A stretch of DNA of 64,000 nucleotides from Candidatus Vogelbacteria bacterium RIFOXYD1_FULL_44_32 (GTDB taxonomy: Bacteria; Patescibacteriota; Minisyncoccia; Phycocordibacterales; XYD1-FULL-46-19). Under the pieces are notes generated by a model. That model saw nothing but the letters and a program-made list of their open reading frames with translations. It did not search any database and was not told the origin of the DNA. Positions 41,501 to 59,804 of the stretch are shown here, piece after piece (positions within the stretch are counted from its first letter, which is position 1; each line of letters opens with the position of its first letter). The stretch covers positions 9,844 to 73,843 of the forward strand of contig MHTJ01000003.1 of assembly GCA_001823065.1 (NCBI GenBank), written 5' to 3'. A program made the position numbers and the translations under genes.

Positions 41501-44500
41501 TTCGCTTGTTGATGCTGCCAACTTTGTCGCCACTTCCACCACCGCCACCTCCACCTTTGCTGGTGGCCTCGCGGTGGAGACGAGTGGGTTGGTGTATGAC
41601 TACTCCACCAATTTTGTGGGTATCGGTACAGCTTCGCCATCTCAAGAATTGGAAGTTATCTCCTCGGCAAGTAATAGTAATGTTTTTGTTGTTTCCGATT
41701 CCGCGGGTACTGATACCAGTATTTTCCGTATCTTTGAAGTATCTGGTGGCGGTGGGCTGGCCTCACTTTATAGTGCGTCTGATGCAGAAGCGATTAGGCT
41801 AAGTGCCACCGGTGACTCGTGGATTAACACCGACAATGATCTGGGTATTGGCACCACTTCACCCCTGGCTCGCCTCGATGTCGTCGGCTCTCTATCTGGT
41901 ACTACACCGCTATTTCAAGTTTCTAGTCTGGGCGCGAGCTATGCCACCACGACTCGAATGATAATTGATTCGAGTGGTAATGTGGGGATCGGTTCATCCG
42001 CTCCTTCTGAATTGCTCACTATTCAAGGAGCAAGTGGTGGTATATCGGGTGTTACAGCCGATACGGTGAGAGTTATGATCCATGATACCTCTAATGGTGG
42101 AACTTGGGATATTGTAAATCCGTTTGCTTCTTTTGCTTTTTCGCGGGCTGACACTAGCGGCGAAGGCGCTGGAATAGCCGCGGAAATTGGAGCCGTCCAT
42201 AATGTCTCTAGCACTGGTGGTAATGTGCGAATAGGATTTTTTACCGCTCCAACAACCTCTGGGACTATGTTGGAAAGAATGAGTATTATGGATGCTGGTG
42301 AGGTGGGTATAGGTACCACTACTCCAAGTGCTAAATTGACTGTTACATCAGATACCGCCAGTGATACTTTTGCTTCTTTGTATCTTGGAGCTATTGAAAC
42401 AGCCAGTGACACCTATCTGACTGGTCTATTTAAATCTGGTACAACCAATGGAGCTCCAGATGTGCGGATAGTAGACAAGGATACCAGTCAAGCTCGCGCT
42501 GCTTTACAGATTCAAGGTAATAATGGAAGTACCGAAATCGCTTTCTTTGGGGCCGGTGGTAATGTCGGCATCGGCACCACTACTCCCCAAAATATTTTGA
42601 CAGTAAATAGTGCTTACAATGTGAGCAATGATTCATTGGATGTGAGAATTAACAATACGACCGATAGTTATAATCGGGGGGCGGGTATCCTTTTCTCTGA
42701 CGCCTATCTTACTACTGGGCGGATAATGGGTATGCGTAGTCGGGGGGCATCACTAGCTGCCGACCCACTTTATGGCAGTATGTTTTTGGATTATCGCAGT
42801 AATTTTCATCTATTTAATAATTTAGCTGGTACGACGGAATTTATGCGGATTACTTCAGCGGGCAACATGGGGATTGGCACTACCACACCCCTTGCCCGTC
42901 TTGATGTTGTCGGCTCTCTATCCGGCACTACCCCACTCTTCCAAGTTTCCAGTCTGGGGGCCAGCTATGCTACGAGCACTAAATTTATAATTGATTCCAG
43001 TGGTAATGTCGGCATCGGTACTACCACCCCCGGCACTTCACTTGGTGTCGCGGGGGCTGGAGTCTTCGGGGCCAATGTAACAGCCAGTGTTTTCAATGCG
43101 ACCTCCACCACCGCTACCTCCACTTTTGCGGGGGGTTTGGCGGTGGAGACAAGCGGGTTGGTGTATGACTATTCAACCAATTTTGTGGGAATTGGAACCG
43201 CTAATCCTCATGGAGCTTTAGAAGTCGATGGTAGTATATATACAAGTCGTGAAAATAGAGGCATCTTCTTTAATAATTTTTTCAATGGTACTAATTACAC
43301 AACCATTAATAACGGAGAATCTGGCGTTTTAAATTTCGGTTCTTCTGGGGAGTTAAATTATAGTACCGCCGCTTCTCGCTCAGCTGGGGCAACTGGTTCG
43401 CAGACAAATATATTTACCGTTCTTAATACTGGGAATTTTGGTATCGGCACCTCCACTCCCGGTACCCAACTTGGTGTCGCTGGCGCGGGTGTCTTTGGTA
43501 CTTATGTCAATGCCAGCATATTTAATGCGACTTCTACAACCGCCACCTCCACCTTTGCTGGTGGGCTGGCAGTAGAAACCAATGGACTGGTTTACGACTA
43601 CTCCACAAATTTTGTGGGGGTTGGGACGGCTGCCCCTCAAACAAAATTCAACGTTAATACAGCTAGTGCTTCTCTAAGTTGGAATGGTATGTTTAGAAAT
43701 ACGACTCATCAGTCGGCTGTTGGTCCTGGAGTGGGAGTAAAGTTTCAGCTGGGTGGTGCCGACACTCCTTCTGAATTGCAAAAATGGGCGGGTATTGCCG
43801 GGGTCTCAGAAGTAGGCACTTATGAACAAACAGTCGCTCTAGCCTTTTATACTCGTTTGGAAGCTAGTGCGGCTGATGCGACTGAAAAAATGAGAATTAC
43901 AGGATCGGGCAATGTCGGCGTGGGTACCACCACCCCCTTAGCTCAACTCACCGCTTCGTCTACTAGTAAGATTGGTCTTATTATTGATCAGCGTGGAACT
44001 TCTGACATTGCTCAATTTCAAGATGCTGGTACTTCAATTTTTGTGATTAAAGATGGTGGCAATGTCGGTATCGGTACCACTACCCCGGGGTCGCTTTTGT
44101 CTATCGGCAACACCGGCACCGGGCCTATCAACCTGTCCGCTACCGCCACTTCCACCTTTGGTTTTGGCATCAACCTCCGCGGCGGTTGTTTCTCGATTAA
44201 TGATTCCTGTCTCGCCAGCGGTGGGTCGGGGACCCCGGTGGGTAGTAATGGAAATATTCAGTTTAATAATTCCGGTTCTTTTGGTGGGGAAAATGACTTA
44301 AACTGGAATTCTACTTTGGACATCTTACAAGTTGCAACATCTACTGGTGGTCAGATACATGTCGGATATATAAATAACAGTAATATCACAGGTACAGCAG
44401 CCGCTAATACCTATATATCGTCCGGCCATAGTTTTCTTTCAAACGGAACAAATGCGGCAACTATCTATCTTGCGGTTGGAGGCGCCGACACTTCGATTGG

Positions 44501-45899
44501 GGTTGGCCAAGGAGGAGATGGTGGAGTTGTAAATATGGTTCAGGGGGGTAGTAGTAGTGATACTAACGGTGCTGATGGCACAGTCAACATTGGTCTATCA
44601 ACCGGTAACAAAAATGCCACCGTCAATGTTTATGGGACCATCAATACTATGTTTAGAAATACTGCTACCACTAATGGCGTCTGCCATTCTGGTACTGATC
44701 TAGATACTACTGACACAACTAATACCTACTCTTTAGTTGCCTGTTCGGCGGCACCGGGTGACATCGCCGAATTTTATCCTGTATCTGACGAGGATATAGA
44801 AGCTGGCGATATTGTTGCACCATCACTAGATGAATTTTTGTATAGTGCCGAAGGTAGTGATCCTTATACTGGAGTTGTTAAATCTCTAGGCACTCAAGAT
44901 GTTTCAATAATGGACAAGGCTACTAAAGAGACGGGTTTTGTTGGGGTTGTATCTACTGGTCCATTCCAGACTTTTGGTAAGGATATTTTGAAAGCTAGAG
45001 GCAAAGACAAATCTCGAGCTATTGCCCTAGTTGGTCGGGTGCCAGTAAAAGTAAATGGCGAAGGGGGAAATATAAAGCCCGGTGACCGCATTACTATTTC
45101 ATCCGAACCAGGCATTGGGATGAAGGCTACTACCACTGGTATGACTTTGGGTGTGGCTCTCAATTCTTTTGCTGGCGAAAGTGTCAGTGATACTGGCGAA
45201 GTTATGGTATTTATAAATATGTCTTACGCCAAGATTTCCGATAGTGTCAGTGACGGTGATATTACTGAAGCTTTGTGGCAGATAGACAACACAACTGGAG
45301 ATATCAAAGCTCTAGCCTCGCTTGATTTAGGTGGTAAATCACTAAAAAACATTTCTTCACTTTCTAGTATTACTGGTAAATGGAGTATTAGTGAAGATGG
45401 CAAGCTGGTTGTTGACGAAATAGAAACCAACAAGCTGACAGTCAAAAATGGGATTACGACCCAAGATAAAACCACTGGTGATTTTTATTGTATATATATA
45501 GACAATGGCACTCTTGAAACTGAACAAGGTAGGTGTGAAGATTTGGTTGTAGAAGTAGTGGCTGAACCAGAGCCTGAGCCAGAACCACCGGCCGGTGATA
45601 GCGGTACTGGTGGCGAAACAGGAGACGGAGACGGTGATGGTGACGCTGGTGGTGATATCGGGGGCGAAGAAAATTCCAGTGGTACAACAGAAGAGGGTGG
45701 AAGCACAAGCGGTTCTGCTGGAGAAGAATCGACAGGAGACGAGGAGGCTACTACTGGAGGAGAAACTGGTGGTGGGACAGACCCCGGCGCAAGTGAATCG
45801 GATGTAGGAACTTCTGAAAGTGGAGAGCCATCAGTCGAGTCGGGTGGCGATAGTCAGACCGGTGATTCGAGTGGTGGGGAAACTACTAGTGGTGTGTAA
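38526..45899 (+). CDS. giant (2457 aa) secreted/surface fibre-like protein with Thr/Ser/Gly-rich beta-repeat arrays and an acidic low-complexity C-terminus
   Basis: It has an N-terminal hydrophobic anchor or signal. There are at least 4 copies of ATSTFAGGLAVETSGLVYDYSTN(F/K)VGIGT, many (S/G)GNVGIGTTTP...L(T/D)V motifs resembling phage tail-fibre-like repeats, 2 copies of a ~45-aa LARLDVVGSLSGTTPLFQVSSLGASYAT block, and a C-terminal EPEPEPEPPAGDSGTGGETGDGDGDGD tail. Confidence 0.8.
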   Translation: MPTSYGKLLQTIRYYVLVLKQIIFKFAFSKWISKKNILGKIRVFGVVVIILANIFTPLTASAAINQQINYQGKLTTTAGAAVTDATRSTVFSLYTASSGGTAIWTETQSVSTTDGLFSVMLGSVTSLATVNFNQTLYLGVNVASDGEMSPRKIIGAVPASFYSSDSDKLDGLTASDFLYATTTNATATITSLNVGNSTTTNATTTSLYVGSTATVAGSLVVSGTATSTFNGGINLLGTNATLTIGNNLAENNYLKFNYSSTGGGDVTGQLEGVDQMSYGFNNRAYYGGTAGVASGRTLYILDRVAGLNRGGFNASGDFYVGPSTTNYGLNVKGPNSGVTGLTVLGNGYVGIGTSTPDTDLAVFASTGTTTLKIHNSGTDLNAVLQFMEDTVGQGMELLYDANGNDLTIRGITEQTPIFTAERTGRVGIGKANPSTTLDIVGTASSTGLQVNGSGTIAGSLTLGTALGVASGGTGLTSYTLGDVIYASGTGTLAGTSTANLKTTLSLNNVENTALSTWAGTTNLTTLGTIATGLWHGTAIEDAYITKTGAWTGTFDGQEGSYYLDATNLTNFGTPFYTYFSATTTDALTQGSTNKYYADSLVNAYIHASSTIPKTYTANTFTGANTFNSTFTIGSFTGPLQAANGVVSATTSIGVVYGGTGLTSAPAYGNLLVGNASSGYTLTATSSLNLAISDTVGTLSVAKGGTGATTFGQGWIYSDGGTGALAASTSPTVNYITATSTIATSTFAGGLAVETSGLVYDYSTNKVGIGTDSPTNELHVNGNARIGELGFIANWPVVWFNAYYDDTDARAEFTTSDSAFALYHDQTNDLFKILYNAVGTAGNQVSSSNVALSVNTSGNVGIGSTTPEAKLTVQNTGTGNSFIVEDQADDTSPFVINASGNVGIGMTAPGYSLEVSNAIVSSLANGSGHPYIGIRSSGASMWYLSDNDTTNDFHLGTSLNDTKFVVDFSTGNVGIGDSTPDYTLDVTGNARFTSLVDAANFVATSTTATSTFAGGLAVETSGLVYDYSTNFVGIGTASPSQELEVISSASNSNVFVVSDSAGTDTSIFRIFEVSGGGGLASLYSASDAEAIRLSATGDSWINTDNDLGIGTTSPLARLDVVGSLSGTTPLFQVSSLGASYATTTRMIIDSSGNVGIGSSAPSELLTIQGASGGISGVTADTVRVMIHDTSNGGTWDIVNPFASFAFSRADTSGEGAGIAAEIGAVHNVSSTGGNVRIGFFTAPTTSGTMLERMSIMDAGEVGIGTTTPSAKLTVTSDTASDTFASLYLGAIETASDTYLTGLFKSGTTNGAPDVRIVDKDTSQARAALQIQGNNGSTEIAFFGAGGNVGIGTTTPQNILTVNSAYNVSNDSLDVRINNTTDSYNRGAGILFSDAYLTTGRIMGMRSRGASLAADPLYGSMFLDYRSNFHLFNNLAGTTEFMRITSAGNMGIGTTTPLARLDVVGSLSGTTPLFQVSSLGASYATSTKFIIDSSGNVGIGTTTPGTSLGVAGAGVFGANVTASVFNATSTTATSTFAGGLAVETSGLVYDYSTNFVGIGTANPHGALEVDGSIYTSRENRGIFFNNFFNGTNYTTINNGESGVLNFGSSGELNYSTAASRSAGATGSQTNIFTVLNTGNFGIGTSTPGTQLGVAGAGVFGTYVNASIFNATSTTATSTFAGGLAVETNGLVYDYSTNFVGVGTAAPQTKFNVNTASASLSWNGMFRNTTHQSAVGPGVGVKFQLGGADTPSELQKWAGIAGVSEVGTYEQTVALAFYTRLEASAADATEKMRITGSGNVGVGTTTPLAQLTASSTSKIGLIIDQRGTSDIAQFQDAGTSIFVIKDGGNVGIGTTTPGSLLSIGNTGTGPINLSATATSTFGFGINLRGGCFSINDSCLASGGSGTPVGSNGNIQFNNSGSFGGENDLNWNSTLDILQVATSTGGQIHVGYINNSNITGTAAANTYISSGHSFLSNGTNAATIYLAVGGADTSIGVGQGGDGGVVNMVQGGSSSDTNGADGTVNIGLSTGNKNATVNVYGTINTMFRNTATTNGVCHSGTDLDTTDTTNTYSLVACSAAPGDIAEFYPVSDEDIEAGDIVAPSLDEFLYSAEGSDPYTGVVKSLGTQDVSIMDKATKETGFVGVVSTGPFQTFGKDILKARGKDKSRAIALVGRVPVKVNGEGGNIKPGDRITISSEPGIGMKATTTGMTLGVALNSFAGESVSDTGEVMVFINMSYAKISDSVSDGDITEALWQIDNTTGDIKALASLDLGGKSLKNISSLSSITGKWSISEDGKLVVDEIETNKLTVKNGITTQDKTTGDFYCIYIDNGTLETEQGRCEDLVVEVVAEPEPEPEPPAGDSGTGGETGDGDGDGDAGGDIGGEENSSGTTEEGGSTSGSAGEESTGDEEATTGGETGGGTDPGASESDVGTSESGEPSVESGGDSQTGDSSGGETTSGV

Positions 45900-45998: not shown

Positions 45999-46496
45999 CT
46001 AAAGCTTACAGACTAGCCCGGCGACCGGACTGGTCATAAAAACGTAGACGGTTTCGCCGGTGGTGAGAGTGCCGGCCTCAGCGGGAGCGAGAGAGAGGAA
46101 AATAATTTTCCCTTCAATGTCAGCGGTTCCGTGGAACCGCCAAATCGAAGAGTTCTCCCTCACTGTCACTGACGTGAGCTTGGTCTCGACAACTTCTAGA
46201 GTGTCGAGGTCCCAGCCCTGGGCCTCCCACCAGTCGCGGGCGGGGGTGGTGGCTTCGATCCTCGCATTTTCCTCCGTCCGTTCGCGTCCGCGCGCGAGCT
46301 CGGATTCCGTCATCGGAATCATGCTCGAGTTGGCGGCCGCGTACACCGTGTCCATCGGTGTACCCGGGATGAAAAACGGAATCAACGCAATTGTGCCGAT
46401 AGTGATGGATACCGCCACCATCCCGGCGATCAACACCCGCATTCTCCACGTCATCTTTTTGACGGTCTTTGGGCCGTCATTGTTAACAGTCAACAT
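45999..46496 (-). CDS. GC-rich hypothetical membrane-anchored protein (165 aa from ATG 46496)
   Basis: A GGAGG SD lies 4 nt upstream of the ATG on the minus strand and there is one N-terminal TM helix. Coding DNA is ~60% GC. Confidence 0.45.
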   Translation of the reverse strand: MLTVNNDGPKTVKKMTWRMRVLIAGMVAVSITIGTIALIPFFIPGTPMDTVYAAANSSMIPMTESELARGRERTEENARIEATTPARDWWEAQGWDLDTLEVVETKLTSVTVRENSSIWRFHGTADIEGKIIFLSLAPAEAGTLTTGETVYVFMTSPVAGLVCKL

Positions 46497-46672
46497 ATGG
46501 CCTCCTTGCTGGATAACCAGCCCTAATGATAAGTGCTCTAATTTAGATAATACACAATATAGAAAAAAAGTCAAGTACAAGGGGAAAATAGGGGATAAGT
46601 GATATTTAGGTATAAAAATAGCGCCGACTCTGGGGGAGAGCCGGCGCGCTTGGCTTTGTTCTGGTCTTGAAC

Positions 46673-47545
46673 CTAGAACAAAGCCGTGAGGATTGCGTTC
46701 AGACGGGAAGCGGGACCCCGTCCGGTTGGGTACTTTTCAAACGAAACGTGTCCGTCCATGTACAGGATGTTGGCGCCACCAGGAACGTGGTTGAAATCGT
46801 CGGCTTGGGCGTCGACGATATCCCAGAGGACGTAAACATTGCTCTGGGCCGCTGAGCTTGCCGCCGCGTTGTTGATGTCGGTAATGAAAAATCGCTCAAT
46901 GCCTTCGCGCAAGCGCAAGCCTTTGGTGGCTGCTCCACCCGCGTTGGTCCAAGACAAGTCGTTATCCGCGGCCGTTGCGTTTCCGCCACCGACAGCGGTG
47001 GCCACTCCAACTAAGGCGCCGACAAATCCGGCGTCGATATAGGTGCCAACGGCGTTGGCTAGGGTCATGGCACCGTCGTTGAAGTTGACCCCGGGTACTC
47101 CAATCAGGTCTTGGAAGGCCCAACCGGAATACACCAACGAAAGCGAATCTAATTCACAGGGGGCAAACGTCCCGCTGGGGCTGTTTCCCACCTGCCACCG
47201 ACCACCGGTGAAGCGGTCGATGCCGTCGGAATCGGACGGGCAGACAAACACCTTCAAATCAGCGATGTACTCGGGGAACACTGAGTCCCCGCGCACGATG
47301 AAGTCAAACCCGGGCGACTCGCAAAAGTCCCCGTCCCTCGTCTTCGCGGTTGGGAACTTCTCGCCCTTGCTCTCGTTCGCGTACATCTTGAGCACTATTC
47401 CGATCTGCTTGAGATTGTTGGCGCAGGACGCCCGACGGGCCGCTTCGCGCGCCCGGGCCAGTGCCGGCAACAGAATGGCCGCGAGGATGCCAATGATGGC
47501 GATGACCACCAACAGTTCGATCAGGGTAAATCCCTTTTTCTTCAT
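46673..47545 (-). CDS. DUF1559 / H-X9-DG protein with type IV pilin-like (prepilin-type) N-terminal cleavage/methylation domain
   Basis: N-terminus [49 protein letters not shown] and C-terminus [15 protein letters not shown]. This family is hugely expanded in Planctomycetota/Verrucomicrobiota. It has ~60% GC and a GAAGGAG SD. Confidence 0.85.
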
Positions 47546-47696
47546 TTCTCAACACTCCTTCTTTTTCTGTATTTTACCTCACGCCAGGGCGACGCCCTTA
47601 GCAACTAGATGAGGTGTCAGTCCGCTACCAGTTATACACTTCATATAAATAATGTCAAGGTGTGAAATTTGGAATTTAAATTTGAAAATCTGGGTT

Positions 47697-47737
47697 AGCC
47701 ACCATTCATTTATTCCCCACGAGGTTCAACCTCGTGG
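47697..47737 (+). repeat. 41-bp direct repeat copy 1 (AGCCACCATTCATTTATTCCCCACGAGGTTCAACCTCGTGG) containing an 8-bp-stem hairpin
   Basis: It matches 48468-48508 at 40/41 positions. Confidence 0.8.
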
Positions 47738-47862
47738 TGGGGATCTATTTTCCAAAGTTTAACCTTGGAATTTAGCCGGTGGGTTGTAATTTCCCCCCGT
47801 TTTGGCGAAGCCAAAACGGGGGGAATTTACTTAATATTTTTTAAAATGTTACAATAATTTAA

Positions 47863-48339
47863 ATGAACAATTACGCATTTATTGATGCTCAAAATGTCCA
47901 CCTAGGCATCAAATCTTTGGGTTGGGATTTGGACTGGGGAAAATTTAGAGTTTATCTGAGAGAAAAGTATAATATTTTCACGGCCTATATTTTCATTGGA
48001 TTTATCCAGACCAACCAAGATTTATATTCCGAGCTACAGAAAGCGGGTTATATTTTGATATTTAAACCAATTATTTTAGACAACAACGGAAAAGCTAAGG
48101 GAAATTGTGACGCGGATCTAGTATTGCACTCTCTTATAGAAAAAGATAAATATGACCAGGCGGTTATTGTTACCAGTGATGGAGATTTTTATTCCCTCGT
48201 TCGCTATTTATACGAGAACGGTAAACTGGCAATGGTGCTAAGTCCTTATGCCGAAACCTGCTCCAAATTGTTAAAAAGAGAAGCTAAAGATAAGATAAAC
48301 TATATGGACAATTTGAAGGGGAAAGTTGGGCAAAAATGA
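47863..48339 (+). CDS. NYN-domain (LabA/DUF88-like) protein, predicted RNase
   Basis: Motifs FIDAQNV, GNCDADLV and VIVTSDGDF are characteristic of the NYN/PIN-like family. Confidence 0.75.
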   Translation: MNNYAFIDAQNVHLGIKSLGWDLDWGKFRVYLREKYNIFTAYIFIGFIQTNQDLYSELQKAGYILIFKPIILDNNGKAKGNCDADLVLHSLIEKDKYDQAVIVTSDGDFYSLVRYLYENGKLAMVLSPYAETCSKLLKREAKDKINYMDNLKGKVGQK

Positions 48340-48381: not shown

Positions 48382-48467
48382 TTGTGGATATATACATCAT
48401 ATAGAAATTACCCTAAAAGTCAACTATTTTGATAGGTCTGGAAATTTAGCATCGGAGAATTGGGGTC

Positions 48468-48508
48468 AGCCACCATTCATTTATTCCCCACGAGATTCAA
48501 CCTCGTGG
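48468..48508 (+). repeat. 41-bp direct repeat copy 2
   Basis: Has one mismatch relative to copy 1. Together the two copies bracket the NYN gene. Confidence 0.8.
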
Positions 48509-49026
48509 CGAAGCCCAATTTTTTGAGAGTTAAAGTAAAAACCGTTCTTGCTTAAAAAATTCCTGCTCTTCCTAGTTCTCCAATGACTCCTTTTAGATAG
48601 CTCAGCGAAGTCTGACCTCAAATGGGTAAGTTGTTGGGGGTAGCTTTTTAGGTATTGTGAGGGTAATTTAGAAGAATAAAGTTTAAAGGACAGGTATTTC
48701 TATCGGACATTTAGGAGGGGAGAAAGTAAAACAGGGGGTTTTTAGGTGGTGGGGGAGTAAAGATGGGGTCAGTTTTTAGACAAACTAAATCTTAAAAAAT
48801 ATATATTTAGACGTAATAAAAAATTTATAAACCAGCCAATAATCTTTTCCTTGACAAGTGGGCTCTAAAGTAGTAGTAATTTCAGGGTAGATAGATCTTT
48901 CCCACCTGTTTCTTTGTAGAAATTGCGGTGGGTTCAACTCAGGTGAAAGTTTGTCTTTCACTCAGTGCTCAATTTAAATTATAAATCTCACTTTGTCCTA
49001 AACGAGGCTCTAACTCGTCGTTTTTT

Positions 49027-51204
49027 GTGTATATGTTCAAAAGTATCCTAAAGACCAATAAAACAAAAATCTTCACTCTACTCCTAGTAGCGGTGGTAGT
49101 TTTTGGTGCCTTTGGTTTACCCCTGACCACTTATGCCGACGACGGTAGTGCTACCGCTTCAGTGGATTCAACCTCGACTGCGGACACTGGTGATACTGGT
49201 AGTACAGACACCGGCAGTGCGGATGCTAGTACCAGCGAAAGTGCTTCTGGTTCAGCTGATACTACTGCCACCGGCTCAACCGAAGAGCCAACGGGCACTG
49301 GAGAGGGTGTATCGGACACTGACCAGAGTGTATCGGACACAGATTCAACCACCACTTCCGGTGAGGGTGAGACTGGTACCAGTGACCAGAATACTGGCGA
49401 TACTCAAACTGGGGATAACTCTACAGGGGAAGAAGAAACCAGTGATACTGGCACGACCACTACTCCGATCTTGCCTGATACAGAAAACACTGATACTGGC
49501 ACGACTACGGAGCCGACCTTACCTGGAGATAATGGGACCACGACGGTTCCTGTGCTTCCTGAAGGGGGTGATACTGGTACGACCACCGTGGCGACTACTA
49601 CCGAGCCAGTGACTGGTGGTGAAGACCAAGATGAACTTCCTTTAGTAGAGGGATATCTTCCTCCGGCGGAAGATGTGTCAGGTGAATATGATATGACTAC
49701 ATCCGAGGACGATGGGTTGCCAGCGGTAGCTGAAGATGTTTCCGCTGAATACAACTTCACCACTCTATCGGACACTCTGCCAGCGGTGGAAGAGGAGGTC
49801 TCCCTCGAATACAATTTTAATACACTTGAATCAGGAGGGGGAACTCTAGCTGAAGATGTTTCCGCTGAGTACCACTTCACGACTCTATCGGACAATAATC
49901 CTCCAGTTGACGAGGAGTATTCCTTGGAGTACCACTTCACCACTCTATCGGACACAAATCCTCCAGTGGATGAGGAACACTCCAATGAATATTTCTTTAC
50001 GACATTGTCCGATACAAATCCTTCTAGCGAGGAGTTTTCTAATGAATACAATTTTACCACCGACGATGATGGTGGTACTAATCCACCAAATGAGGAATAT
50101 TCTAATGAGTACCAATTTGGAACTACTGGTGGGGGTGGAACAGAAACGGAAGAAGAATATTCCAATGAGTACAGCTTTACCACCGACGATGATGGTGGTA
50201 CTAATCCACCAAATGAGGAATATTCTAACGAGTACCAATTTGGAACTACTGGTGGGGGTGGAACAGAAACGGAAGAAGAATATTCCAATGAGTACAGCTT
50301 TACTACCGATAACGGTGGCTGTACCGAAAATTGTGGTGGCGGAGGTGGAGGCGGTGGTGGCGGAGGCGGGCATAATCACAAAAAGAATAAAGTTTTGCCT
50401 AGTCCGTGCATGCCACTACTCTTGAAATATATTCGCTTGGGGGCCAACAACGATCCGTATGAAGTTTACAAACTGCAGTGGTTCTTGCGGACTTTTGAAA
50501 ATATGGAAATACCTTTGTCCGGAGTGTATGACCAGACCACATATGAAGCAGTAAAAATATTCCAAGCGCGCCATGCGACAGATGTGCTCCACAGCTGGGG
50601 TATTACTGAGCCGACCGGCTATGTCTATATCACCACCCAACTGATGGTAAATTATATTTACTGTGATATTGACGAGCCACTGCGTCTAGAATTATTGCTC
50701 GAGGAACAAACGGGCACTGGTTTTGGTTATACTAAATTACCAAGTAAAGGTGATGGTCTAGACTATCTGGTCTATCCGCCAAAAACCGAGCGTACGGTGT
50801 TTGAAGGTATCACTCTTGATTTACCCGCCGAAGCAGACAAAAAAGTTGGTAATATTTTTCAACTAGCCACCGCCGGTTTTATGGATTGGCTTCAGGGTAC
50901 CGAAGGTAAGTATTGGTGGTGGTTGATTATTTTGCCGTTGGTAGTGGTTGCTGGTTATCTATATCGGCGATTGAAAGTTGAACAAACTGACAAAGAATTA
51001 GCCCAAGAGGCGCAGGCCACAATTTTGGAAGCCGACCGCGAAATGACCGCTGAACCAATTGTCGGAGCCGAGGCGGAGACACCACATAAAGAAGATGTGC
51101 CCGATGAAATTATTGCCGAATACAATGCGGCTAATGGCGGACACCAAGCTGGCCAAGAAGCCATAGTTTTGCCAGGCGAGAGTCTAGAGGACCGAGAGAG
51201 TTAA
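49027..51204 (+). CDS. secreted acidic repeat protein with a PG_binding_1-like peptidoglycan-binding domain, a single TM helix and a cytoplasmic tail
   Basis: It has a signal peptide, a Thr/Asp/Glu/Gly-rich region with ~19-aa repeats (EEYSNEYxFTTLSDTNPP), and a G12 tract. The PG-binding region reads YEVYKLQWFL...SGVYDQTTYEAVKIFQARH and the TM segment is WWWLIILPLVVVAGYLY. Confidence 0.75.
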   Translation: MYMFKSILKTNKTKIFTLLLVAVVVFGAFGLPLTTYADDGSATASVDSTSTADTGDTGSTDTGSADASTSESASGSADTTATGSTEEPTGTGEGVSDTDQSVSDTDSTTTSGEGETGTSDQNTGDTQTGDNSTGEEETSDTGTTTTPILPDTENTDTGTTTEPTLPGDNGTTTVPVLPEGGDTGTTTVATTTEPVTGGEDQDELPLVEGYLPPAEDVSGEYDMTTSEDDGLPAVAEDVSAEYNFTTLSDTLPAVEEEVSLEYNFNTLESGGGTLAEDVSAEYHFTTLSDNNPPVDEEYSLEYHFTTLSDTNPPVDEEHSNEYFFTTLSDTNPSSEEFSNEYNFTTDDDGGTNPPNEEYSNEYQFGTTGGGGTETEEEYSNEYSFTTDDDGGTNPPNEEYSNEYQFGTTGGGGTETEEEYSNEYSFTTDNGGCTENCGGGGGGGGGGGGHNHKKNKVLPSPCMPLLLKYIRLGANNDPYEVYKLQWFLRTFENMEIPLSGVYDQTTYEAVKIFQARHATDVLHSWGITEPTGYVYITTQLMVNYIYCDIDEPLRLELLLEEQTGTGFGYTKLPSKGDGLDYLVYPPKTERTVFEGITLDLPAEADKKVGNIFQLATAGFMDWLQGTEGKYWWWLIILPLVVVAGYLYRRLKVEQTDKELAQEAQATILEADREMTAEPIVGAEAETPHKEDVPDEIIAEYNAANGGHQAGQEAIVLPGESLEDRES
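50050..50289 (+). repeat. 2 x 120-bp near-perfect tandem repeat inside the 49027 gene
   Basis: NEYNFTTDDDGGTNPPNEEYSNEYQFGTTGGGGTETEEEYS is encoded twice, with only 1-2 nt differences. Confidence 0.8.
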
Positions 51205-51285: not shown

Positions 51286-54200
51286 ATGGTGTCTAACCAC
51301 TCTAAGCGGTATAAAGGCCGATATTCATTTCTAACTTACATCAAGCCAGCTTTCCTAGTGCTGGCTTTTTTATTCTTTTTCCAATTAATCACGCCAGTCG
51401 CCCTGGCTCAAGACGGGACGGTGGAGGAATCATTGCCGCTTCCTCCGGCAGAGGAGCCAGCACCCGTTCTTCCGCCGGCCGGAGGTAGTATCAGCGACCC
51501 CGAAGCTCCAGCCGAACTGGCAGCAGTTGCGGAGGAAGACAACCTAGTCGCTTTGTCACTTACTGTCACCAGTCGTTCGCCGGTAGACTTAGGCAAGCCA
51601 CCAGTGGGAACGGGCTTTAAAATTTCGGCCGACACCTCGGACGGCTCGCTGGCATATGAGTTTCCCCTGACTCTCCCTCCTGGCCGCCAGGGTTTGGCCC
51701 CGGAGCTGTCTTTGCTCTATTCTAGCCGTCCTACTAGCGCTACCTCTTTATTTGGTTACGGTTGGACGTTGTCGATTCCTTTTATCGAACGAAAAAATCT
51801 TCATGGTTCGGATCGGCTGTACGAGGAGACAGATTTCACTTCTTCCTTAAGTGGTGACTTGGTGGCCTTAGGCGGCGAGACCTATCGCGCCAAAGTTGAT
51901 GAGGGGGAGTTTCTGGTTTATGTTTTCCGCGATAATGCTTGGACAGTGACAGACAAAAGCGGCATGGTCTACCGCTTCGGCCAGACCGCCGCCGCCCGTC
52001 AGGATGATGCTGATCATCCGACCCACGTCTACAAATGGATGCTCGAGGAAGTTCGCGATCTAAACGGAAATTATGTTACCTATCGTTATGCCAAAGATTC
52101 CAACCAAATTTATCCGGAATCAATAACTTATACTCACCATGCTGATACGGCTGGTCTATATTCAATACGCTTCATCAAAACTCCACGTGATTATCCCGTC
52201 ACCTCTTGGGCGGCAGGTTTTAAAGTTGTCACCAATCATATTATAAGTGAAATAGTTGTTGAAGTCGGAGGAGGGTGGACGAGGAAGTATTCTTTCGCCT
52301 ATACCCAGCGAGACAACCAGAGTCGGTCATTGCTAACCTCAATCATCGAATGGGGAAATGACGGTTCAAAAATCATCTCTTTACCACCGACCACCTTTAC
52401 TTATCAAGTATCAGCTAAGGCCTGGGTTGAAAACAGCCGTTGGACTTTGCCAGTGTCTCTTGTCGGAGACAACTACGAAGACACGGGCGCGCGAATTGCC
52501 GACATTAATGGCGATGCTTTACCCGATATTATAACTAATAATAATGGCTCCTTTCTTAACACTGGTTACGGTGACTGGGACAGAGCCGGCCCCGAGTGGA
52601 CCCTGCCTGTGGCGTTGACGAAACCAGATGTGGTCCACCCTGGAAGTATGTTGATTGACGTTAATGGTGATGGATTGATTGATATTGCCCAAAGTCGGGA
52701 TGGTGATGAGGACCCGGATATTGTCTATTTTAATACTGGCCACGGCTGGGTGACATCGTCGACCACGGTTCCGGTCTATTTTGCGACGCGAAACGGCAGT
52801 GATAACGGAGTCCGGGTTGCCGACATTAATGGCGACGGTCTGCCTGATTTGTTGCGTTTTCATGCTGGCGACGGCGCATTGGGTAATCGTGTTTATATCA
52901 ATAATGGTTCCGGCTGGAGCGAAGATCGGTCCTGGGTTTTACCGGAGCCGACCCTTGCCGGCGACGGCCAGACTGATTTGGGCACGCGTTTTGGCGACGT
53001 TAATGGTGATGGCCTAGTCGATATCCTTCGCAAAGATGAAAGCGTTAGTAAAGTCTATTTCAATACTGGTCACGGTTGGGAACTGGCCTCTGCTTGGGTT
53101 ATTACCGCCGAGGAATTTATGAACGACGGTGGTGATCGAGGCACGCGAGTTTATGATGTCAATAGTGACGGATTTGACGATCTTGTGAATAGTCAGGCGC
53201 CAGGTGATGTTGGTGTTTATCTCAATACGGGTAGTCCTTCTAACGACTGGACTTTAGACATGAGCTGGCGTATTCCTTTCAGGTTGGTTGATTATCTTCG
53301 CGACGGGGGCCGTTACGTTGATCCGGGAACGCGGTTGGTGGATTTAAACGCTGACGGACTCCTGGACATACTTCAGTCACGATCAAGTGGCCCGAACCAG
53401 GTTTATTTTCAAGCTGGCCCACAGCCTGATCTCCTTCAGAGTGTGACATTTAGTCGGGGCGGTGGGGCGAACATTACCTATCTCTCCAGCACCTTTTATC
53501 ATCCAAATGGTCTTGGTCGTCTCAATCAAAAGTTGCCGTTTCCGATGATAACGGTTAGTACGATTACCGAGCACGATGGCCTCGGCGGTAGTGCCACTAC
53601 CGAATATAGTTATAAAAATGGCGAATATTATCACGAGAACATTCTTGACCGAAAATTTGCCGGCTTTGGCCAAGTGGAAAAAACCGATGCCATGGGCAAT
53701 ATTACTAAAACCTATTTTCACCAAGGTAATGATTCTGATTCTGGTCGCGGGGAATTTGAAGATCATTTTAGTAAAATTGGGCGAATTTATCGAGTAGAAA
53801 AATATGATTCAGCTGGCAATTTATTGACCCAAGAAATTAGTCGGTGGGGGAGGGTGGCCTTGGCTGTCAGCGCTGGCCTTGATCGATCTTTTGTTCCATT
53901 GTTAAACAATATAAAAATGACTTACGATGGCGACAATAGTCACCGTGATGTGGCTGAAGCCTATACTTATGATAATTTTGGTAATTTAGTTCGGGCCGAA
54001 AATTATGGTGAAGTGGTGGCTAGTGACGATGGAAGTTTTAGTGATCTGGGTTCTGATAAAACAACCAAGATTTTGAGTTATGTCACAAACTCAACAACGG
54101 GCATATTGGGGTTAGTAAGGATGGAAGAATTGAGAAATAACAATGGAGCCAATGTGGCGGTCAAAAAATATTATTATGATAATCTTCCCATTGGGGCAGT

Positions 54201-57192
54201 TCAACGGGGCAATTTAACCAAAACGGAAAGTTGGGTTGGGGGCACTAAATGGGTGACGACGGCCAATAGTTATGACAACCAGGGTTTACTTAAAACAAGT
54301 ACTGATGGGCGAGGATATTCCACCACTTATTTATACGACGAATTTGGCTTGTACCCTAGTACAATATCCAATTCTCTAGGGCAGGTCACGTCCTATCAAT
54401 ATGATTATGCTTCAGGGCAGGTCACTAAAGAAACTGACCCTAATGGTTTTGCTAAAATTAAAATATACGATGGGTTGGGGCGAGTGGTTACTGAAAAAGA
54501 GCAAACAGGTGGGGTGGCCGAGGTGGTGACAAAAGAAACATTTTATCGTGACGATATTGTACCTAAACTTATTCAGACCAAAAAATTTCTTCTCTTAAAT
54601 TTATCTAACGAGGTCTATAGTTATTTTGATGGTCTGGGTCGACTAGTCGAAGAGAGGACGCAAATGGAAAATGCCGGCGACTATGCTGTGACCTCGCTTA
54701 AATACAACCCAAAAGGAGAATTATTAGCTAAGACTTTGCCCTACCTGGAAACTGGTTCAAGTTATACTGCACCAACCTTTCCCGTTGGTCTTACCACTAA
54801 TTTTACTTACGACTCTCTTGGTCGGGCTAAAACGGTGAGTGATTCGCTGGGCACGACCAATTACTCTTACACCGATTGGGTGACTACAATTACCGACCCG
54901 CTTGGCAAAGTCAAAAAATATACGACCGACGCTTATGGCCGACTAATCTTGGTTGATGAGGGGTATGGCAAGGGCTTTTATCATACTCGGTATTATTATA
55001 GTCCCACGGGTAATTTAATCAGGATTATGGATGCACTGAATAATATCCGTGATTTTACTTATGATAACCTGGGGCGTCGTCTGTCGGCTCAAGACTTGCA
55101 TCAGTCGAGCGATACTAGTTTTGGTCTGTGGTCTTATACCTATGACGATAATAATAACCTGTTTTCCAGGAAAGATCCGCTCGGTCAAACTGTAAATTAT
55201 ACTTACGATGGCCTAAATCGGCCATTAATAGAAGACTATCTCGGTCGAGCCAATCCGGAGGTAAAATATACTTATGACAATTGTATAAATGGAGTGGGGC
55301 GCTTGTGTAAGGTGGCTATAGTTGGACTGTCTAAAAATTATCAATATACTCCGCGTGGTGAAGTACGGGTGGACAACAGAGTTTATAATCAAGCTTCTTA
55401 CACTACAGTCAATGCTTACGATTTAGCTGGCAATATAGTATCTATTCGTTTACCCGACAACAGTCAAATTATTTATGAATATAATTTAGTTGGAAAAGTT
55501 GAAAACATATCACGCCGTGATATTTTCAATAGCTCGGCCATTATCCCCGTTGTTTCCAATTTTGATTATAGCCCTCATGGCTTACCTGTTTATCAGCAAA
55601 ATGCTGATGGCATAAAAAATATATTTACCTATGACCCGACCAAAAGTTATCGTCTGCAGACAAAGACAACCAAAAAAGATAATATCAATTATCAATTAGT
55701 TAGTTATGAATATGATTCAGTTGGTAATATTACCAAACTCATTGATACCTCTCCTAACCTATTAGCCAAGACAGTTAGTTATACTTATGACGATCTCTAC
55801 CGACTGACCAAGGCCGTAGCGACCAACGCCAGTTCGACTTTATATTCCCAAGATTTTCTTTATGGCCCAACGGGGAACATTTTGAAAGGGTCGATGGGTA
55901 TATATGCTTACAGTGGTATCGATTTTACTTCACCTCAAGCTGTAACCTCAATTGCTTCTTCTACTTACAGCTATGATAAAAACGGCAATATGTTAACCGC
56001 CCCTAGCGCCACTTACGCTTGGGACTACAATAATCGCTTAGTTAAGAGTGTGGCCGGAACCACTACCACCACCTATGAATATGACAACGAAGGCCAACGA
56101 ATCTCTCAAAAAACTGGAGCCAGTGCTACACTGTATATTAGCCCCAACTACGATTTGACCGGTTCGGTCATTGATAAACATGTCTATGCTGGTGACCAGT
56201 TAGTCGCTACTCTCCGTACTCAAAACGGCACCACTAGCCCTTATTACACCCACTCCGACCACCTGTCCGGCACTAGTCTGGTAACTGACCAAAATAGTAA
56301 CGTGATGCAGAGCATAGACTATTTACCTTATGGTGCCAAAAGAATAAGTTCTGGAACGGATGTTTCTCAAAGAGAGTTCATTGGTCAAATTTATGATGAA
56401 TTGACTTCGCTAAGCTATCTGAATGCACGCTACTACGATGGGTCGAGAGGACAATTTCTTTCCCAAGATCCAATGTTTTGGCAACTTCCATCGACCTTGC
56501 TCGTAGATCCTCAACAGCTAAATTCTTATAGCTACGCAAGAAACAATCCTCTAATATATAAAGATCCACTAGGTCTATACAACATAAAAACTGGAGCTGT
56601 TGAAAAGGGTGATAATCTGTCTAAGATTAGAAATTTGATTAATGGGGCAAATGGAACAAGCTACTCTGTTTCTCAACTTGCGAAGCTAAATAATATATCA
56701 AATCCAGATCGTATTTATGTTGGTCAAACAATCAAACCGAATAACTTGGTCCCAGATATTACAAGATCCCTGAATAGTGTCAATCAATCACATGGAGTGC
56801 AAGCCCAGGGTCCGGTTGTTGCAGGTTCTGGTTCTACCAATTCTACTCCAGCGGCCAAGGGTATAGGGTCGGTTGAATTTGGATGGAATTTTAGGGAAGG
56901 AGGTAAATGGGATTTGAAGTCGCAGGGTTCAAATGTAGAAGGAGGAGTATTCTGCCAGAAGTCAGCTTGTGGAGGACAGAGAGCAACAAGTTATATTTAC
57001 AATTCTCAAGAAGTCTCGGGTGACGCACCAGGAAATATTCATTATGGTTATGTTGGCAAAAGAGCAGAGTATAGTGAAAGCACACTCTTATTCTTCGGTG
57101 GAGCAGTTCAAACTATTACACACCCAGGTCAATTTGGAGACCCTAGTTCTGACAAAACTTACATCATGCAGGGTTATGGGTTAAACTATTAA
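51286..57192 (+). CDS. RHS/YD-repeat polymorphic toxin with SpvB-like N-terminal domain and FG-GAP beta-propeller (Tc-toxin TcB-TcC-like fusion), C-terminal LysM plus unknown toxin domain
   Basis: Signal peptide; SpvB motif GSLAYEFPLTLPPGRQGLAPELSLLYSS; six DxNGDGxxD FG-GAP repeats; more than 20 YD repeats (YxYDxxGRL); RHS core end DPQQLNSYSYARNNPLIYKDPLGL; and then a LysM (GDNLSKIRNL...IYVGQTIKP) plus a ~110-aa Cys-containing domain. Confidence 0.9.
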   Translation: MVSNHSKRYKGRYSFLTYIKPAFLVLAFLFFFQLITPVALAQDGTVEESLPLPPAEEPAPVLPPAGGSISDPEAPAELAAVAEEDNLVALSLTVTSRSPVDLGKPPVGTGFKISADTSDGSLAYEFPLTLPPGRQGLAPELSLLYSSRPTSATSLFGYGWTLSIPFIERKNLHGSDRLYEETDFTSSLSGDLVALGGETYRAKVDEGEFLVYVFRDNAWTVTDKSGMVYRFGQTAAARQDDADHPTHVYKWMLEEVRDLNGNYVTYRYAKDSNQIYPESITYTHHADTAGLYSIRFIKTPRDYPVTSWAAGFKVVTNHIISEIVVEVGGGWTRKYSFAYTQRDNQSRSLLTSIIEWGNDGSKIISLPPTTFTYQVSAKAWVENSRWTLPVSLVGDNYEDTGARIADINGDALPDIITNNNGSFLNTGYGDWDRAGPEWTLPVALTKPDVVHPGSMLIDVNGDGLIDIAQSRDGDEDPDIVYFNTGHGWVTSSTTVPVYFATRNGSDNGVRVADINGDGLPDLLRFHAGDGALGNRVYINNGSGWSEDRSWVLPEPTLAGDGQTDLGTRFGDVNGDGLVDILRKDESVSKVYFNTGHGWELASAWVITAEEFMNDGGDRGTRVYDVNSDGFDDLVNSQAPGDVGVYLNTGSPSNDWTLDMSWRIPFRLVDYLRDGGRYVDPGTRLVDLNADGLLDILQSRSSGPNQVYFQAGPQPDLLQSVTFSRGGGANITYLSSTFYHPNGLGRLNQKLPFPMITVSTITEHDGLGGSATTEYSYKNGEYYHENILDRKFAGFGQVEKTDAMGNITKTYFHQGNDSDSGRGEFEDHFSKIGRIYRVEKYDSAGNLLTQEISRWGRVALAVSAGLDRSFVPLLNNIKMTYDGDNSHRDVAEAYTYDNFGNLVRAENYGEVVASDDGSFSDLGSDKTTKILSYVTNSTTGILGLVRMEELRNNNGANVAVKKYYYDNLPIGAVQRGNLTKTESWVGGTKWVTTANSYDNQGLLKTSTDGRGYSTTYLYDEFGLYPSTISNSLGQVTSYQYDYASGQVTKETDPNGFAKIKIYDGLGRVVTEKEQTGGVAEVVTKETFYRDDIVPKLIQTKKFLLLNLSNEVYSYFDGLGRLVEERTQMENAGDYAVTSLKYNPKGELLAKTLPYLETGSSYTAPTFPVGLTTNFTYDSLGRAKTVSDSLGTTNYSYTDWVTTITDPLGKVKKYTTDAYGRLILVDEGYGKGFYHTRYYYSPTGNLIRIMDALNNIRDFTYDNLGRRLSAQDLHQSSDTSFGLWSYTYDDNNNLFSRKDPLGQTVNYTYDGLNRPLIEDYLGRANPEVKYTYDNCINGVGRLCKVAIVGLSKNYQYTPRGEVRVDNRVYNQASYTTVNAYDLAGNIVSIRLPDNSQIIYEYNLVGKVENISRRDIFNSSAIIPVVSNFDYSPHGLPVYQQNADGIKNIFTYDPTKSYRLQTKTTKKDNINYQLVSYEYDSVGNITKLIDTSPNLLAKTVSYTYDDLYRLTKAVATNASSTLYSQDFLYGPTGNILKGSMGIYAYSGIDFTSPQAVTSIASSTYSYDKNGNMLTAPSATYAWDYNNRLVKSVAGTTTTTYEYDNEGQRISQKTGASATLYISPNYDLTGSVIDKHVYAGDQLVATLRTQNGTTSPYYTHSDHLSGTSLVTDQNSNVMQSIDYLPYGAKRISSGTDVSQREFIGQIYDELTSLSYLNARYYDGSRGQFLSQDPMFWQLPSTLLVDPQQLNSYSYARNNPLIYKDPLGLYNIKTGAVEKGDNLSKIRNLINGANGTSYSVSQLAKLNNISNPDRIYVGQTIKPNNLVPDITRSLNSVNQSHGVQAQGPVVAGSGSTNSTPAAKGIGSVEFGWNFREGGKWDLKSQGSNVEGGVFCQKSACGGQRATSYIYNSQEVSGDAPGNIHYGYVGKRAEYSESTLLFFGGAVQTITHPGQFGDPSSDKTYIMQGYGLNY
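52501..53375 (+). other. FG-GAP/integrin-like beta-propeller repeat region of the RHS protein
   Basis: Repeats DINGDALPDI, DVNGDGLIDI, DINGDGLPDL, DVNGDGLVDI, DVNSDGFDDL and DLNADGLLDI. Confidence 0.7.
56579..57189 (+). other. hypervariable C-terminal toxin module (CT1) downstream of the RHS DPLGL autoproteolysis motif; LysM at ~56590-56730
   Basis: Sequence similarity to the orphan copies stops exactly after YKDP(L/T)G. Confidence 0.7.
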
Positions 57193-57201: not shown

Positions 57202-57777
57202 ATGAAAAAATATTCATTCAAAAAAATAATTACTATTTTAGCTGTTGCACTAGTACTGGTAATTCTAATTTACTATATTCTTGGTGAGTTAGGAGGAAAT
57301 GCTTTCCGTATCCGAGCAGGTTTGTTGATTCATAAAGAAGAATTTAATGAATTTGTAGACAAGTTCCTTAATCAAAATTCTATAAAAAATATTCAAACGT
57401 CTGTTGGTTTCTTTAGCACTACGGAAAGTATAAATAGTTGTAGCCGCTATCCTGAAGAAGGCGATACACCTTGGACTTGTAGTGAGGGGGAATACCCAAA
57501 TATCGTATCAATAAATCTTGCGAGTATTAATGCAGTTTTAGAACATGAACATATCCCGAATGAAGAATACCAATACTTTGTTGATTTTATGGAAAGATAT
57601 AAATTCAACGGTGTGGGTAAGAATAATAATGACAGATCTGTCGAAATAGAAGATAAACTAAAAGGCTTGAGATATTACGAACAACAAAATTCAAGTAAGC
57701 TTACTGAAAATAATGAGTATCTTTTTGTTAAAAAAATTAATGAACATTGGTTTTACTATGTGAGAGATTGGAATTAG
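57202..57777 (+). CDS. putative cognate immunity protein for CT1 (N-terminal TM anchor)
   Basis: A small ORF 10 nt downstream of the toxin gene. Both position and size are typical of RHS immunity genes. Confidence 0.5.
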   Translation: MKKYSFKKIITILAVALVLVILIYYILGELGGNAFRIRAGLLIHKEEFNEFVDKFLNQNSIKNIQTSVGFFSTTESINSCSRYPEEGDTPWTCSEGEYPNIVSINLASINAVLEHEHIPNEEYQYFVDFMERYKFNGVGKNNNDRSVEIEDKLKGLRYYEQQNSSKLTENNEYLFVKKINEHWFYYVRDWN

Positions 57778-57789
57778 GATAAATAGAGA

Positions 57790-58881: not shown

Positions 58882-58886
58882 ATATC

Positions 58887-59396
58887 ATGAAGAGAAAACT
58901 GCTAATTATTGTAACTAGTGTCACATTAATTATTTTGGGTGGTGCCATGTTTCTGTACTACTTTTGGTTTGTTGCTCCAGAAAAAAAGATTGCATTGGAG
59001 TGTCAAAATTTTGTTCCAAGTTGGTTGGATTTTATTGAATGTTCAGGAGTAGTTGCTATCAATGATGGGTGGGATATGGATTATATTTCACTCAAGGATC
59101 ATGTTCATGACTATGAAATTGCACGTGTCTATGATCAGAAGCAATACTTGTTTGTTGAGAATAAGCTATTTGTAATCAATCAAAAGTATATTGAAAATAG
59201 TGCCTCAGATAACGTTGAGGTTACTTATTATCATAAGTTGTTCCAAAATGGAAAATTGATTGAGAACTCTTACGGTAGTATTTCTGATATCCCGACCTAT
59301 TTAATTGTCGACACTAAAACGGGGGAAGTAAAAGCATATAAAGATCTGATGGAAGCTTCTGAAGCAGAAAAGAAGTATTTTTCTGAAATAGAATAA
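58887..59396 (+). CDS. putative immunity protein for CT2 (N-terminal TM helix)
   Basis: Immediately follows the orphan CT2 with a 5-nt gap. Confidence 0.5.
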   Translation: MKRKLLIIVTSVTLIILGGAMFLYYFWFVAPEKKIALECQNFVPSWLDFIECSGVVAINDGWDMDYISLKDHVHDYEIARVYDQKQYLFVENKLFVINQKYIENSASDNVEVTYYHKLFQNGKLIENSYGSISDIPTYLIVDTKTGEVKAYKDLMEASEAEKKYFSEIE

Positions 59397-59408
59397 ATAT
59401 CTCTACAA

Positions 59409-59723
59409 ATGCCTCAGGTAATACCATTAGAAATATTGAATAATTGTGTCGTAAATTTAAGACAAGAAACTAGCGCTGGTGATTTTAAGGTGGGAACAGG
59501 AATTCTTATTGGAAAAGATAACAAACTTTTACTCCTTACAGCTGAACATGTCGCACGGGATATGAAGAATGATGAGAAGCTTATCTTAAGAGTTGATAAT
59601 AATTTACCAATAAGCTTAGAAATTATTCAAGTTTGTAAGTTAGATAATTCAGGAAATATACCATATATAATGGTTCAAATGATCATGCTAAAAGATATGG
59701 AGAAAGAATTAATGCTCAATTGA
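59409..59723 (+). CDS. short protein resembling the N-terminal fragment of a trypsin-like serine peptidase (GTGILIG...LLLTAEHVA)
   Basis: The catalytic-His-like motif TAEHV is present but the ORF is only 104 aa. It may be a gene remnant. Confidence 0.3.
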   Translation: MPQVIPLEILNNCVVNLRQETSAGDFKVGTGILIGKDNKLLLLTAEHVARDMKNDEKLILRVDNNLPISLEIIQVCKLDNSGNIPYIMVQMIMLKDMEKELMLN

Positions 59724-59804
59724 ATAACCCAAACTATAATAAGAACATCGTTGCTAATCAATTGAAAAAATTTATTAAATCATTTAATAAATCAAAGTAA
59801 AAAT

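Follow-up and report, generated by a model that had tools for sequence, protein, structure and literature searches.

Does a gene that directly precedes a polymorphic Rhs toxin gene serve the toxin, or does it belong to the cell envelope in its own right? The question is raised by a stretch of 64,000 nucleotides (nt) from contig MHTJ01000003.1 (positions 9,844 to 73,843) of Candidatus Vogelbacteria bacterium RIFOXYD1_FULL_44_32, referred to below as the window. In it, an open reading frame (ORF) of 725 amino acids (aa) encodes a protein with a predicted signal peptide, acidic repeats, a peptidoglycan (PG)-binding domain and a transmembrane helix. A first-pass annotation had offered two ideas, namely a co-factor, anchor or chaperone of the toxin, or an envelope-spanning tether. 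The second agrees with our results, as the predicted topology and the PG_binding_1-type domain fit a membrane-to-wall tether. We consider it probable that the gene product is a bitopic (type I) envelope protein, a wall-tethered surface protein of a Patescibacteria (Paceibacteria/Vogelbacteria-like) cell. The sequence comparisons did not support a partnership with the toxin.

When searched in isolation, the domain between C461 and C546 matched PF01471 with 24.4 bits (E 3.4e-5), above the Pfam gathering score of 23 bits, and the same model was matched by 39 of 40 relatives (best E 1.9e-9). A profile of the family searched against the PDB matched PG-binding proteins, including 5tv7, 1lbu, SleB, endolysins and an L,D-transpeptidase. 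The AlphaFold model of aa 450–660 had predicted local distance difference test (pLDDT) values >90 over approximately aa 460–555 and three main helices in the domain (model residues 28–42, 54–66/68–71 and 86–97). The best Foldseek matches of the model were 5tv7, SleB-N (target TM-score 0.70), SleC, CtpB, the AP3 endolysin and EpsAB, and the top 11 PDB matches all contain PG_binding_1 (probability 0.99–1.00). The domain assignment of the first-pass annotation was thus confirmed by hidden Markov model (HMM) search and predicted fold, and Pfam and NCBIfam scans of the protein returned no model besides PG_binding_1. An extended W-G...P-T-G-Y-V-Y-I-T-T loop signature was invariant across 40 diverse sequences, as were the two cysteines that bracket the domain (invariant columns C461, C546, W524, G525, T530, G531 and T536-T537). 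Since both bracketing cysteines are invariant, they probably form a disulfide that clamps the domain. The domain protein was 86% identical to that of L006 (homologue loci are designated by L and a number), at approximately 73% nucleotide identity, which points to purifying selection.

The remainder of the protein is consistent with export and with retention in the membrane. The predicted Sec-type signal peptide contains four lysines, a 19-aa hydrophobic core and the sequence T-Y-A|D-D, with the predicted cut after T-Y-A. It is followed by an acidic region (aa 38–435) with a net charge of approximately −95, which consists chiefly of T, G, D, E, S and N. In a full-length AlphaFold model, which rests on a shallow alignment of six sequences, aa 38–215 had a pLDDT <50 and were without secondary structure, and no structure was obtained for aa 30–473. 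The repeat region is therefore predicted to be disordered. Downstream of the PG-binding domain, AlphaFold predicted a disordered linker and a helix ahead of the transmembrane helix; G594 and A614, in the linker and juxtamembrane part, were invariant in the family alignment. The sequence RRLK directly after the transmembrane helix is consistent with the positive-inside rule and a cytoplasmic C-terminus. The 79-aa tail has a net charge of approximately −14 across its last 65 aa. It varied in length and sequence across the alignment, with low-complexity tails of 9 to 157 aa among the homologues. The tails of close relatives share D-E-V/I-V/I-A-E-Y-N (window 51100–51125), which resembles the core of the extracellular repeats. 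Hydropathy, charge, composition and the AlphaFold helix hence agreed with the signal peptide, the approximately 400 aa rich in D, E, T and G, and the single transmembrane helix with a charged cytoplasmic tail that had been described from the sequence beforehand. The features are listed in Table 1.

Table 1. Features of the acidic repeat gene and its immediate surroundings, with window coordinates
Feature	Position	Strand	Basis
Conserved upstream region and 5' leader	48851..49032	+	Alignment with L006 and L004; RNA fold
Coding sequence of the acidic repeat/PG-binding/transmembrane protein	49027..51204	+	ORF list; homologues in 83 loci; start-codon comparison
Predicted Sec-type signal peptide, aa 1–37	49027..49137	+	Hydropathy and charge; cleavage inferred
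Thr/Gly/Asp/Ser-rich low-complexity region, aa 38–215	49138..49671	+	Composition; net charge −39
Array of ~20-aa repeats, aa 216–435	49672..50331	+	Ten S-x-E-x-x-F-x-T copies; net charge −56
In-frame tandem duplication, 2 x 123 bp (41 codons, two protein repeats)	50053..50298	+	Sequence comparison
C-T-E-N-C (C432, C436) and Gly12 (aa 437–448)	50320..50370	+	Read as hinge or linker
PG_binding_1-type three-helix domain, C461 to C546	50407..50664	+	Pfam PF01471, PDB profile, AlphaFold, Foldseek
Variable linker (aa 547–600) and conserved juxtamembrane helix (aa ~601–624)	50665..50910	+	Alignment, AlphaFold
Predicted single transmembrane helix, aa ~629–646	50911..50964	+	Hydropathy, AlphaFold helix
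Acidic, poorly conserved cytoplasmic tail (aa 647–725) and stop	50965..51204	+	Composition, alignment
Rhs polymorphic toxin (context)	51286..57192	+	Signal peptide, SpvB, FG-GAP, TcdB_toxin_midN, RHS repeats, LysM, Ntox44 (Pfam)

The second half of the acidic region contains ten copies of S-x-E-x-x-F-x-T with a spacing of approximately 20 aa (aa 239–427), where shuffling would produce approximately 1.6 copies even of a looser motif. The repeats, characterised from the fetched homologue loci, follow the consensus (V/I)-S-x-E-x-S-F-T-T, then P/G-rich spacers, with a period of 18–22 aa. Among 1037 ORFs of related loci and all ORFs of the window, at least two copies of the motif occurred only in members of this PG-binding family; a word-indexed homology search in which the repeat region was the sole query returned nothing at E<=0.001. 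The array includes a recent in-frame duplication. Its two 123-bp copies (50053–50175 and 50176–50298) are identical at 122 of 123 positions, the one mismatch being a synonymous T/C difference (50106/50229), and the identity extends 5 nt further. The duplication was absent from L006, the closest full-length relative. A tandem repeat had been noted in the first-pass annotation as an exact 2 x 120-bp repeat, of which the tandem arrangement stands, while the period is 123 bp and the copies are not fully exact. Similarly, the 12-glycine tract (50335–50370) is present, but is no homopolymeric codon run: it is encoded by mixed GGT, GGC, GGA and GGG codons, so that the homopolymer is one of amino acids and not of nucleotides. 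The C-x-x-x-C just before the Gly run (aa 432–436, window 50320–50334) recurs in L005, L006 and L014. Among the relatives, the motif occurred between 2 and 18 times and the Gly run ranged from 0 to 26 residues, in agreement with the earlier suggestion that both elements are hotspots of length variation. The recent duplication and the differing counts among relatives indicate that length changes by duplication and loss.

An initial search found five relatives of the protein, all in Patescibacteria. When one genome per GTDB species was scanned, the number rose to 129 relatives, and all the named ones were Patescibacteria (Vogel-, Zambryski-, Lipton- and Paceibacterota). In an HMMER scan of 1.84 billion cluster representatives, 2882 matches were obtained at E<=1e-30 and 6714 at E<=1e-10. 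The family thus appears to be very large, uncharacterised and restricted to Patescibacteria. The 778-aa family protein of one contig (L031), labelled 'Anaerolineaceae bacterium', shares its features with the protein in the Patescibacteria metagenome-assembled genome (MAG) L030, and the contig is probably mis-binned. An N-terminal hydrophobic segment was present in 52 of the 59 homologues with a complete 5' end. Transmembrane segments after the domain were found in 63 of 80 distinct homologues (one in 46, two or more in 17), and 46 of 75 had a run of at least five Gly within the 70 aa upstream of the domain. The window protein follows this layout of a signal peptide, poly-Gly shortly before the domain and a transmembrane helix approximately 40–100 aa downstream: its Gly12 lies 12 aa before C461 and its transmembrane helix 83 aa after C546. 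In more distant relatives (L010, L019 and L043), PA14/fn3-like or Cna-B-like regions replace the repeats. The constant part of the family is the hinge, the PG-binding domain, the linker and the membrane segment, and the N-terminal passenger is variable. Some genomes encode several copies, with two in tandem in L051, and with L041 and L072 from one MAG.

Taken together, these features suggest the following arrangement. The N-terminus would be exported by the Sec system and the signal peptide cleaved off, while the C-terminal transmembrane helix would retain the protein in the cytoplasmic membrane with the short acidic tail on the cytoplasmic side. Close to the outer face of the membrane, the PG_binding_1 domain, probably clamped by its disulfide, would bind peptidoglycan non-covalently. 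The Gly-rich hinge would join this anchor module to approximately 400 aa of disordered, strongly polyanionic sequence, which may form a stalk or brush at the surface, extending into the wall or across it. The exposed part could plausibly contribute to surface charge or cation binding, act as a spacer or mediate adhesion. The anchor module would be held constant while the N-terminal passenger evolves, its length changing as repeats are duplicated and lost, and the gene would form part of a conserved chromosomal block near SecA and MurB.

Several observations weigh against a wall-tethered surface protein of this kind. The binding of peptidoglycan, the exposure at the surface and the cleavage of the signal peptide are predictions and not experimental results. 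The full-length protein scored only 21.3 bits against PF01471, under the Pfam cutoff, and the Foldseek E-values were just 0.05–0.1, because the domain is small. As the disorder prediction draws on the six-sequence alignment only, the acidic region could be folded or could acquire structure with a ligand. In most of the best 150 matches of the broad family, a short amphipathic C-terminus takes the place of a full transmembrane helix, so that the form with a transmembrane helix and a tail is one subtype. Finally, the spacer between the acidic repeat gene and rhs contains just a weak terminator-like hairpin with a 5-bp stem. Co-transcription with rhs is possible, as is a functional link to rhs that is specific to this lineage.

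In the closely related clade, the gene is embedded in a conserved order, which runs Wzy_C/TPR, SecA, frequently a giant fibre protein, the family gene, and then MurB, GatB, Gap, RpiB, Rpe and Tkt, with one or two secreted low-complexity or fn3 proteins between the family gene and MurB. In a more distant clade, genes for an aminoacyl-tRNA synthetase-like, a membrane and an Hsp20-like protein are upstream and a TsaD-like gene is downstream (names taken from cluster representatives, without HMM). The window retains the upstream half of the close-clade order, with Wzy_C/TPR at 32081–34288, SecA at 35181–37691 (72% identical to the SecA of L007, Vogelbacteria) and a 2457-aa protein at 38526–45899. 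Where the relatives have MurB, GatB and Gap, an Rhs island follows the family gene, and the window ends at 64000. In tblastn searches of the window, the downstream genes of L001, L003 and L004, including MurB, GatB and Gap of L001, had no matches, and nothing downstream of the family gene in L005, L006 and L007 matched the window. An insertion is therefore indistinguishable from a larger rearrangement.

If the protein were a co-factor, wall anchor or chaperone that aids the export, positioning or delivery of the Rhs protein, the two genes would form one operon. The first-pass annotation had placed rhs 80 nt downstream on the same strand; adjacency and strand were correct, and the gap to the rhs ATG (51286) is 81 nt. 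Accessory genes of Rhs and Tc toxins are usually located upstream, which counts for this reading, as does the weakness of the hairpin between the genes. However, none of the 83 Patescibacteria homologue loci had any similarity to the window Rhs protein even at E<=0.1, although 60 of them include at least 3 kb and 50 at least 6 kb of downstream sequence. Conversely, none of three Rhs-homologue loci from metagenomes, a small sample, contained the PG-binding domain; in one of them (L084) an unrelated 1348-aa surface protein was encoded upstream of Rhs. At both the nucleotide and the protein level, the resemblance to L005 (75%) and L006, the closest relatives, extends no further than the stop codon of the acidic repeat gene. 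Given this and the absence of Rhs co-occurrence, the adjacency is a synteny breakpoint specific to this genome. Additionally, the Rhs protein has a signal-peptide-like N-terminus and a wall-binding LysM domain of its own, the acidic repeat gene has its own conserved upstream region, and Pfam gave PG_binding_1 alone, with no match to DUF1795/EagR, PAAR, VgrG or TcA. On the evidence of these comparisons, the adjacency to rhs does not appear to reflect a functional partnership, and we regard the accessory role proposed in the first-pass annotation as very unlikely.

Three further alternatives were considered. One of these holds that the protein is the surface element to which a giant trimeric fibre of the mosaic adhesive trimer (MAT) type attaches, its S-x-E-x-x-F-x-T motifs binding the conserved N-terminal domain of the fibre. 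In about 19 loci, a homologue of the 2457-aa protein is encoded on the same strand a short distance ahead of the family gene, and the motif is exclusive to the family. The N-terminus of the giant protein matched NF053851 Bdello_MAT_N (E 1.1e-6), and for the mosaic adhesive trimer of Bdellovibrio, an unidentified surface element is presumed to be the binding partner of the N-terminal domain (PMC10769870). That match is weak, with a score far under the cutoff (28.6 vs 60 bits). Moreover, the motif-rich family genes of L007, L029, L030, L034 and L048 directly follow SecA without a fibre gene nearby, three unrelated genes separate the fibre and the family gene in the window, and common ancestry or a common hot spot of insertion may be all that the adjacency reflects. 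The docking proposal has gene adjacency and one weak domain match as its sole basis, and we consider it doubtful. A more specific form, in which the hinge, PG-binding domain and transmembrane helix are a Patescibacteria-specific, sortase-independent display anchor and the motifs are docks, or modification sites, for MAT-like host-recognition fibres, seems unlikely. A scaffold of wall synthesis or division, by analogy with ExeA/GspA, FtsN-type SPOR proteins or MotB/Pal analogues, would serve to place an envelope machine or to link membrane and wall, with the acidic region as a spacer. The conserved position between SecA and MurB, the conserved juxtamembrane and transmembrane helices and the periplasmic PG-binding domain of EpsAB among the fold matches would all suit such a role. 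What makes it improbable in our assessment is that the cytoplasmic tail is short, acidic, poorly conserved and without a recognisable domain, that several copies occur in some genomes, and that the highly variable N-terminal passengers, with adhesin-like domains in relatives, fit display better than machinery. Finally, a bitopic protein with a ligand-binding domain outside and a tail inside could be a transmembrane sensor of wall fragments that signals through the tail. Pfam and NCBIfam revealed no signalling domain, whether kinase, anti-sigma or other, and a low-complexity tail of such variable length also speaks against this function, which we rate as extremely improbable.

The start of the gene and its leader were compared with those of the closest relatives. 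The GTG at 49027, from which the listed ORF begins, reads GCG in the two closest relatives, and an ATG at 49033 is conserved. The true start is therefore probably the ATG, from which the protein would have 723 aa. An exact-sequence look-up of the 725-aa protein matched no record. Approximately 240 nt upstream of the start are common to L006 (78% identity), and the leader aligned with L006 and L004 in long invariant blocks; the segment 48851–49032 was conserved better than the coding sequence. It begins with a conserved TTGACA (−35-like, 48851–48856) and is predicted to contain three hairpins (RNA fold z = −1.97), of which the first has one apparent compensatory change and the last (49002–49018), together with a U-run, directly abuts the start codon. 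Rfam had no match to the 5' region at E<=1 or to the whole window at gathering scores, and a tRNA scan returned nothing. Promoter and terminator scans returned counts near the shuffle expectation and were uninformative on operon structure.

Some additional features of the surroundings were observed. The protein at 32081–34288 (+), with Wzy_C (O-antigen ligase-like) and TPR, is kept upstream of SecA in six loci. The giant 2457-aa protein (38526–45899, +) is secreted and rich in Gly, Thr and Ser, with ...G-N-V-G-I-G-T-T-T-P... repeats and an acidic C-terminus rich in PEPEPE and G-D-T. Between this gene and the acidic repeat gene, a segment at 46000–47500 has a guanine-plus-cytosine (GC) fraction of approximately 0.6, compared with approximately 0.42 for the contig. 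It includes 46673–47545 (−) and 45999–46580 (−), and on the opposite strand encodes a prepilin of a kind typical of Planctomycetes and Verrucomicrobia, which has DUF1559 and H-X9-DG motifs. Horizontal transfer or mis-assembly could account for this segment. Further downstream, two 68-nt direct repeats (47684–47751 and 48455–48522; 84% identical), each with the hairpin CCACGAGNTTCAACCTCGTGG, flank a gene for an NYN-domain protein (47863–48339), which suggests a small mobile or duplicated cassette. A strong palindrome (47786–47830), whose 21-nt arms are 95% complementary and enclose a loop of 3 nt, lies just upstream of the NYN gene. On the other side of the acidic repeat gene, 57202–62285 has the typical Rhs 'orphan' arrangement after the main toxin. 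It comprises two displaced Rhs C-terminal tips with different ends (57790–58881 and 60852–61793, the latter with an SLT lytic transglycosylase domain), a GH25 muramidase (60133–60822, −), and small ORFs at 57202–57777, 58887–59396 and 61800–62285, which may be immunity genes. In a distant Rhs-homologue locus (L086, 619–4087), the gene upstream of Rhs has repeats like those of the giant fibre protein of the window.

A large part of bacterial diversity belongs to the Patescibacteria, which live attached to other cells. To our knowledge, almost none of their envelope proteins have been characterised. A membrane-to-wall module that displays variable passengers, and that is represented by thousands of protein clusters, would be a useful starting point for work on surface assembly and decoration in these cells. 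For annotation, a position next to Rhs is no sign of a partnership, and the label of toxin accessory should be avoided for this gene. If the docking of fibres were true, the protein would be the missing surface element bound by the N-terminal domains of the fibres, and the interval from SecA to MurB would be an organising locus of the episymbiont contact apparatus, which receives fibre and Rhs genes.

The kind of PG-binding domain is itself already known, and by its sequence the window protein is probably a non-catalytic, membrane-tethered PG_binding_1 surface protein. Wall enzymes with this domain (SleB, SleC, the Zn DD-peptidase of Streptomyces albus G (1lbu), the endolysins AP3 and phiKZ gp144, and 5tv7 of C. 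difficile) have the same three-helix fold and signature. Unlike these, the window protein lacks a catalytic domain, its PG-binding domain is bracketed by two invariant cysteines and has an enlarged W-G...P-T-G-Y-V-Y-I-T-T loop, and it is tethered by a C-terminal transmembrane helix and preceded by a poly-Gly hinge and acidic repeats. The ExeA/GspA-EpsAB proteins of type II secretion assembly are likewise bitopic, with an extracytoplasmic PG_binding_1 domain that ties the membrane to the wall, and 4g54 was among the fold matches. ExeA has an N-terminal cytoplasmic AAA+ ATPase and an orientation opposite to that of the window protein, which has a predicted cleavable signal peptide and a C-terminal anchor. 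An ExeA-like ATPase was rejected, as the Pfam and NCBIfam scans contained no ATPase and the N-terminus is a predicted signal peptide. A signalling tail was likewise rejected, since these scans found no defining domain. Rhs and Tc accessory proteins (EagR/DUF1795, PAAR, VgrG and TcA) resemble the window protein only in their position directly upstream of Rhs on the same strand. It has no match to their families and no conserved pairing with Rhs, and the window Rhs is of the Sec type with its own signal peptide. In overall design, the protein is similar to wall-spanning surface proteins of Gram-positive bacteria with acidic or low-complexity stalks, such as the serine-aspartate repeat proteins Sdr/Clf and SasG/Aap, which also combine a signal peptide, a stalk of variable copy number and a C-terminal wall or membrane anchor. 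The S-x-E-x-x-F-x-T repeats are unrelated to theirs, and a sortase/LPXTG anchor was rejected, as the sequence before the transmembrane helix (...MDWLQGTEGKYWWW) is without LPXTG and the tail is acidic and 79 aa long. Whereas Sdr/Clf and SasG/Aap are covalently linked by sortase via LPXTG, the window protein would be anchored by its transmembrane helix and by non-covalent binding to peptidoglycan.

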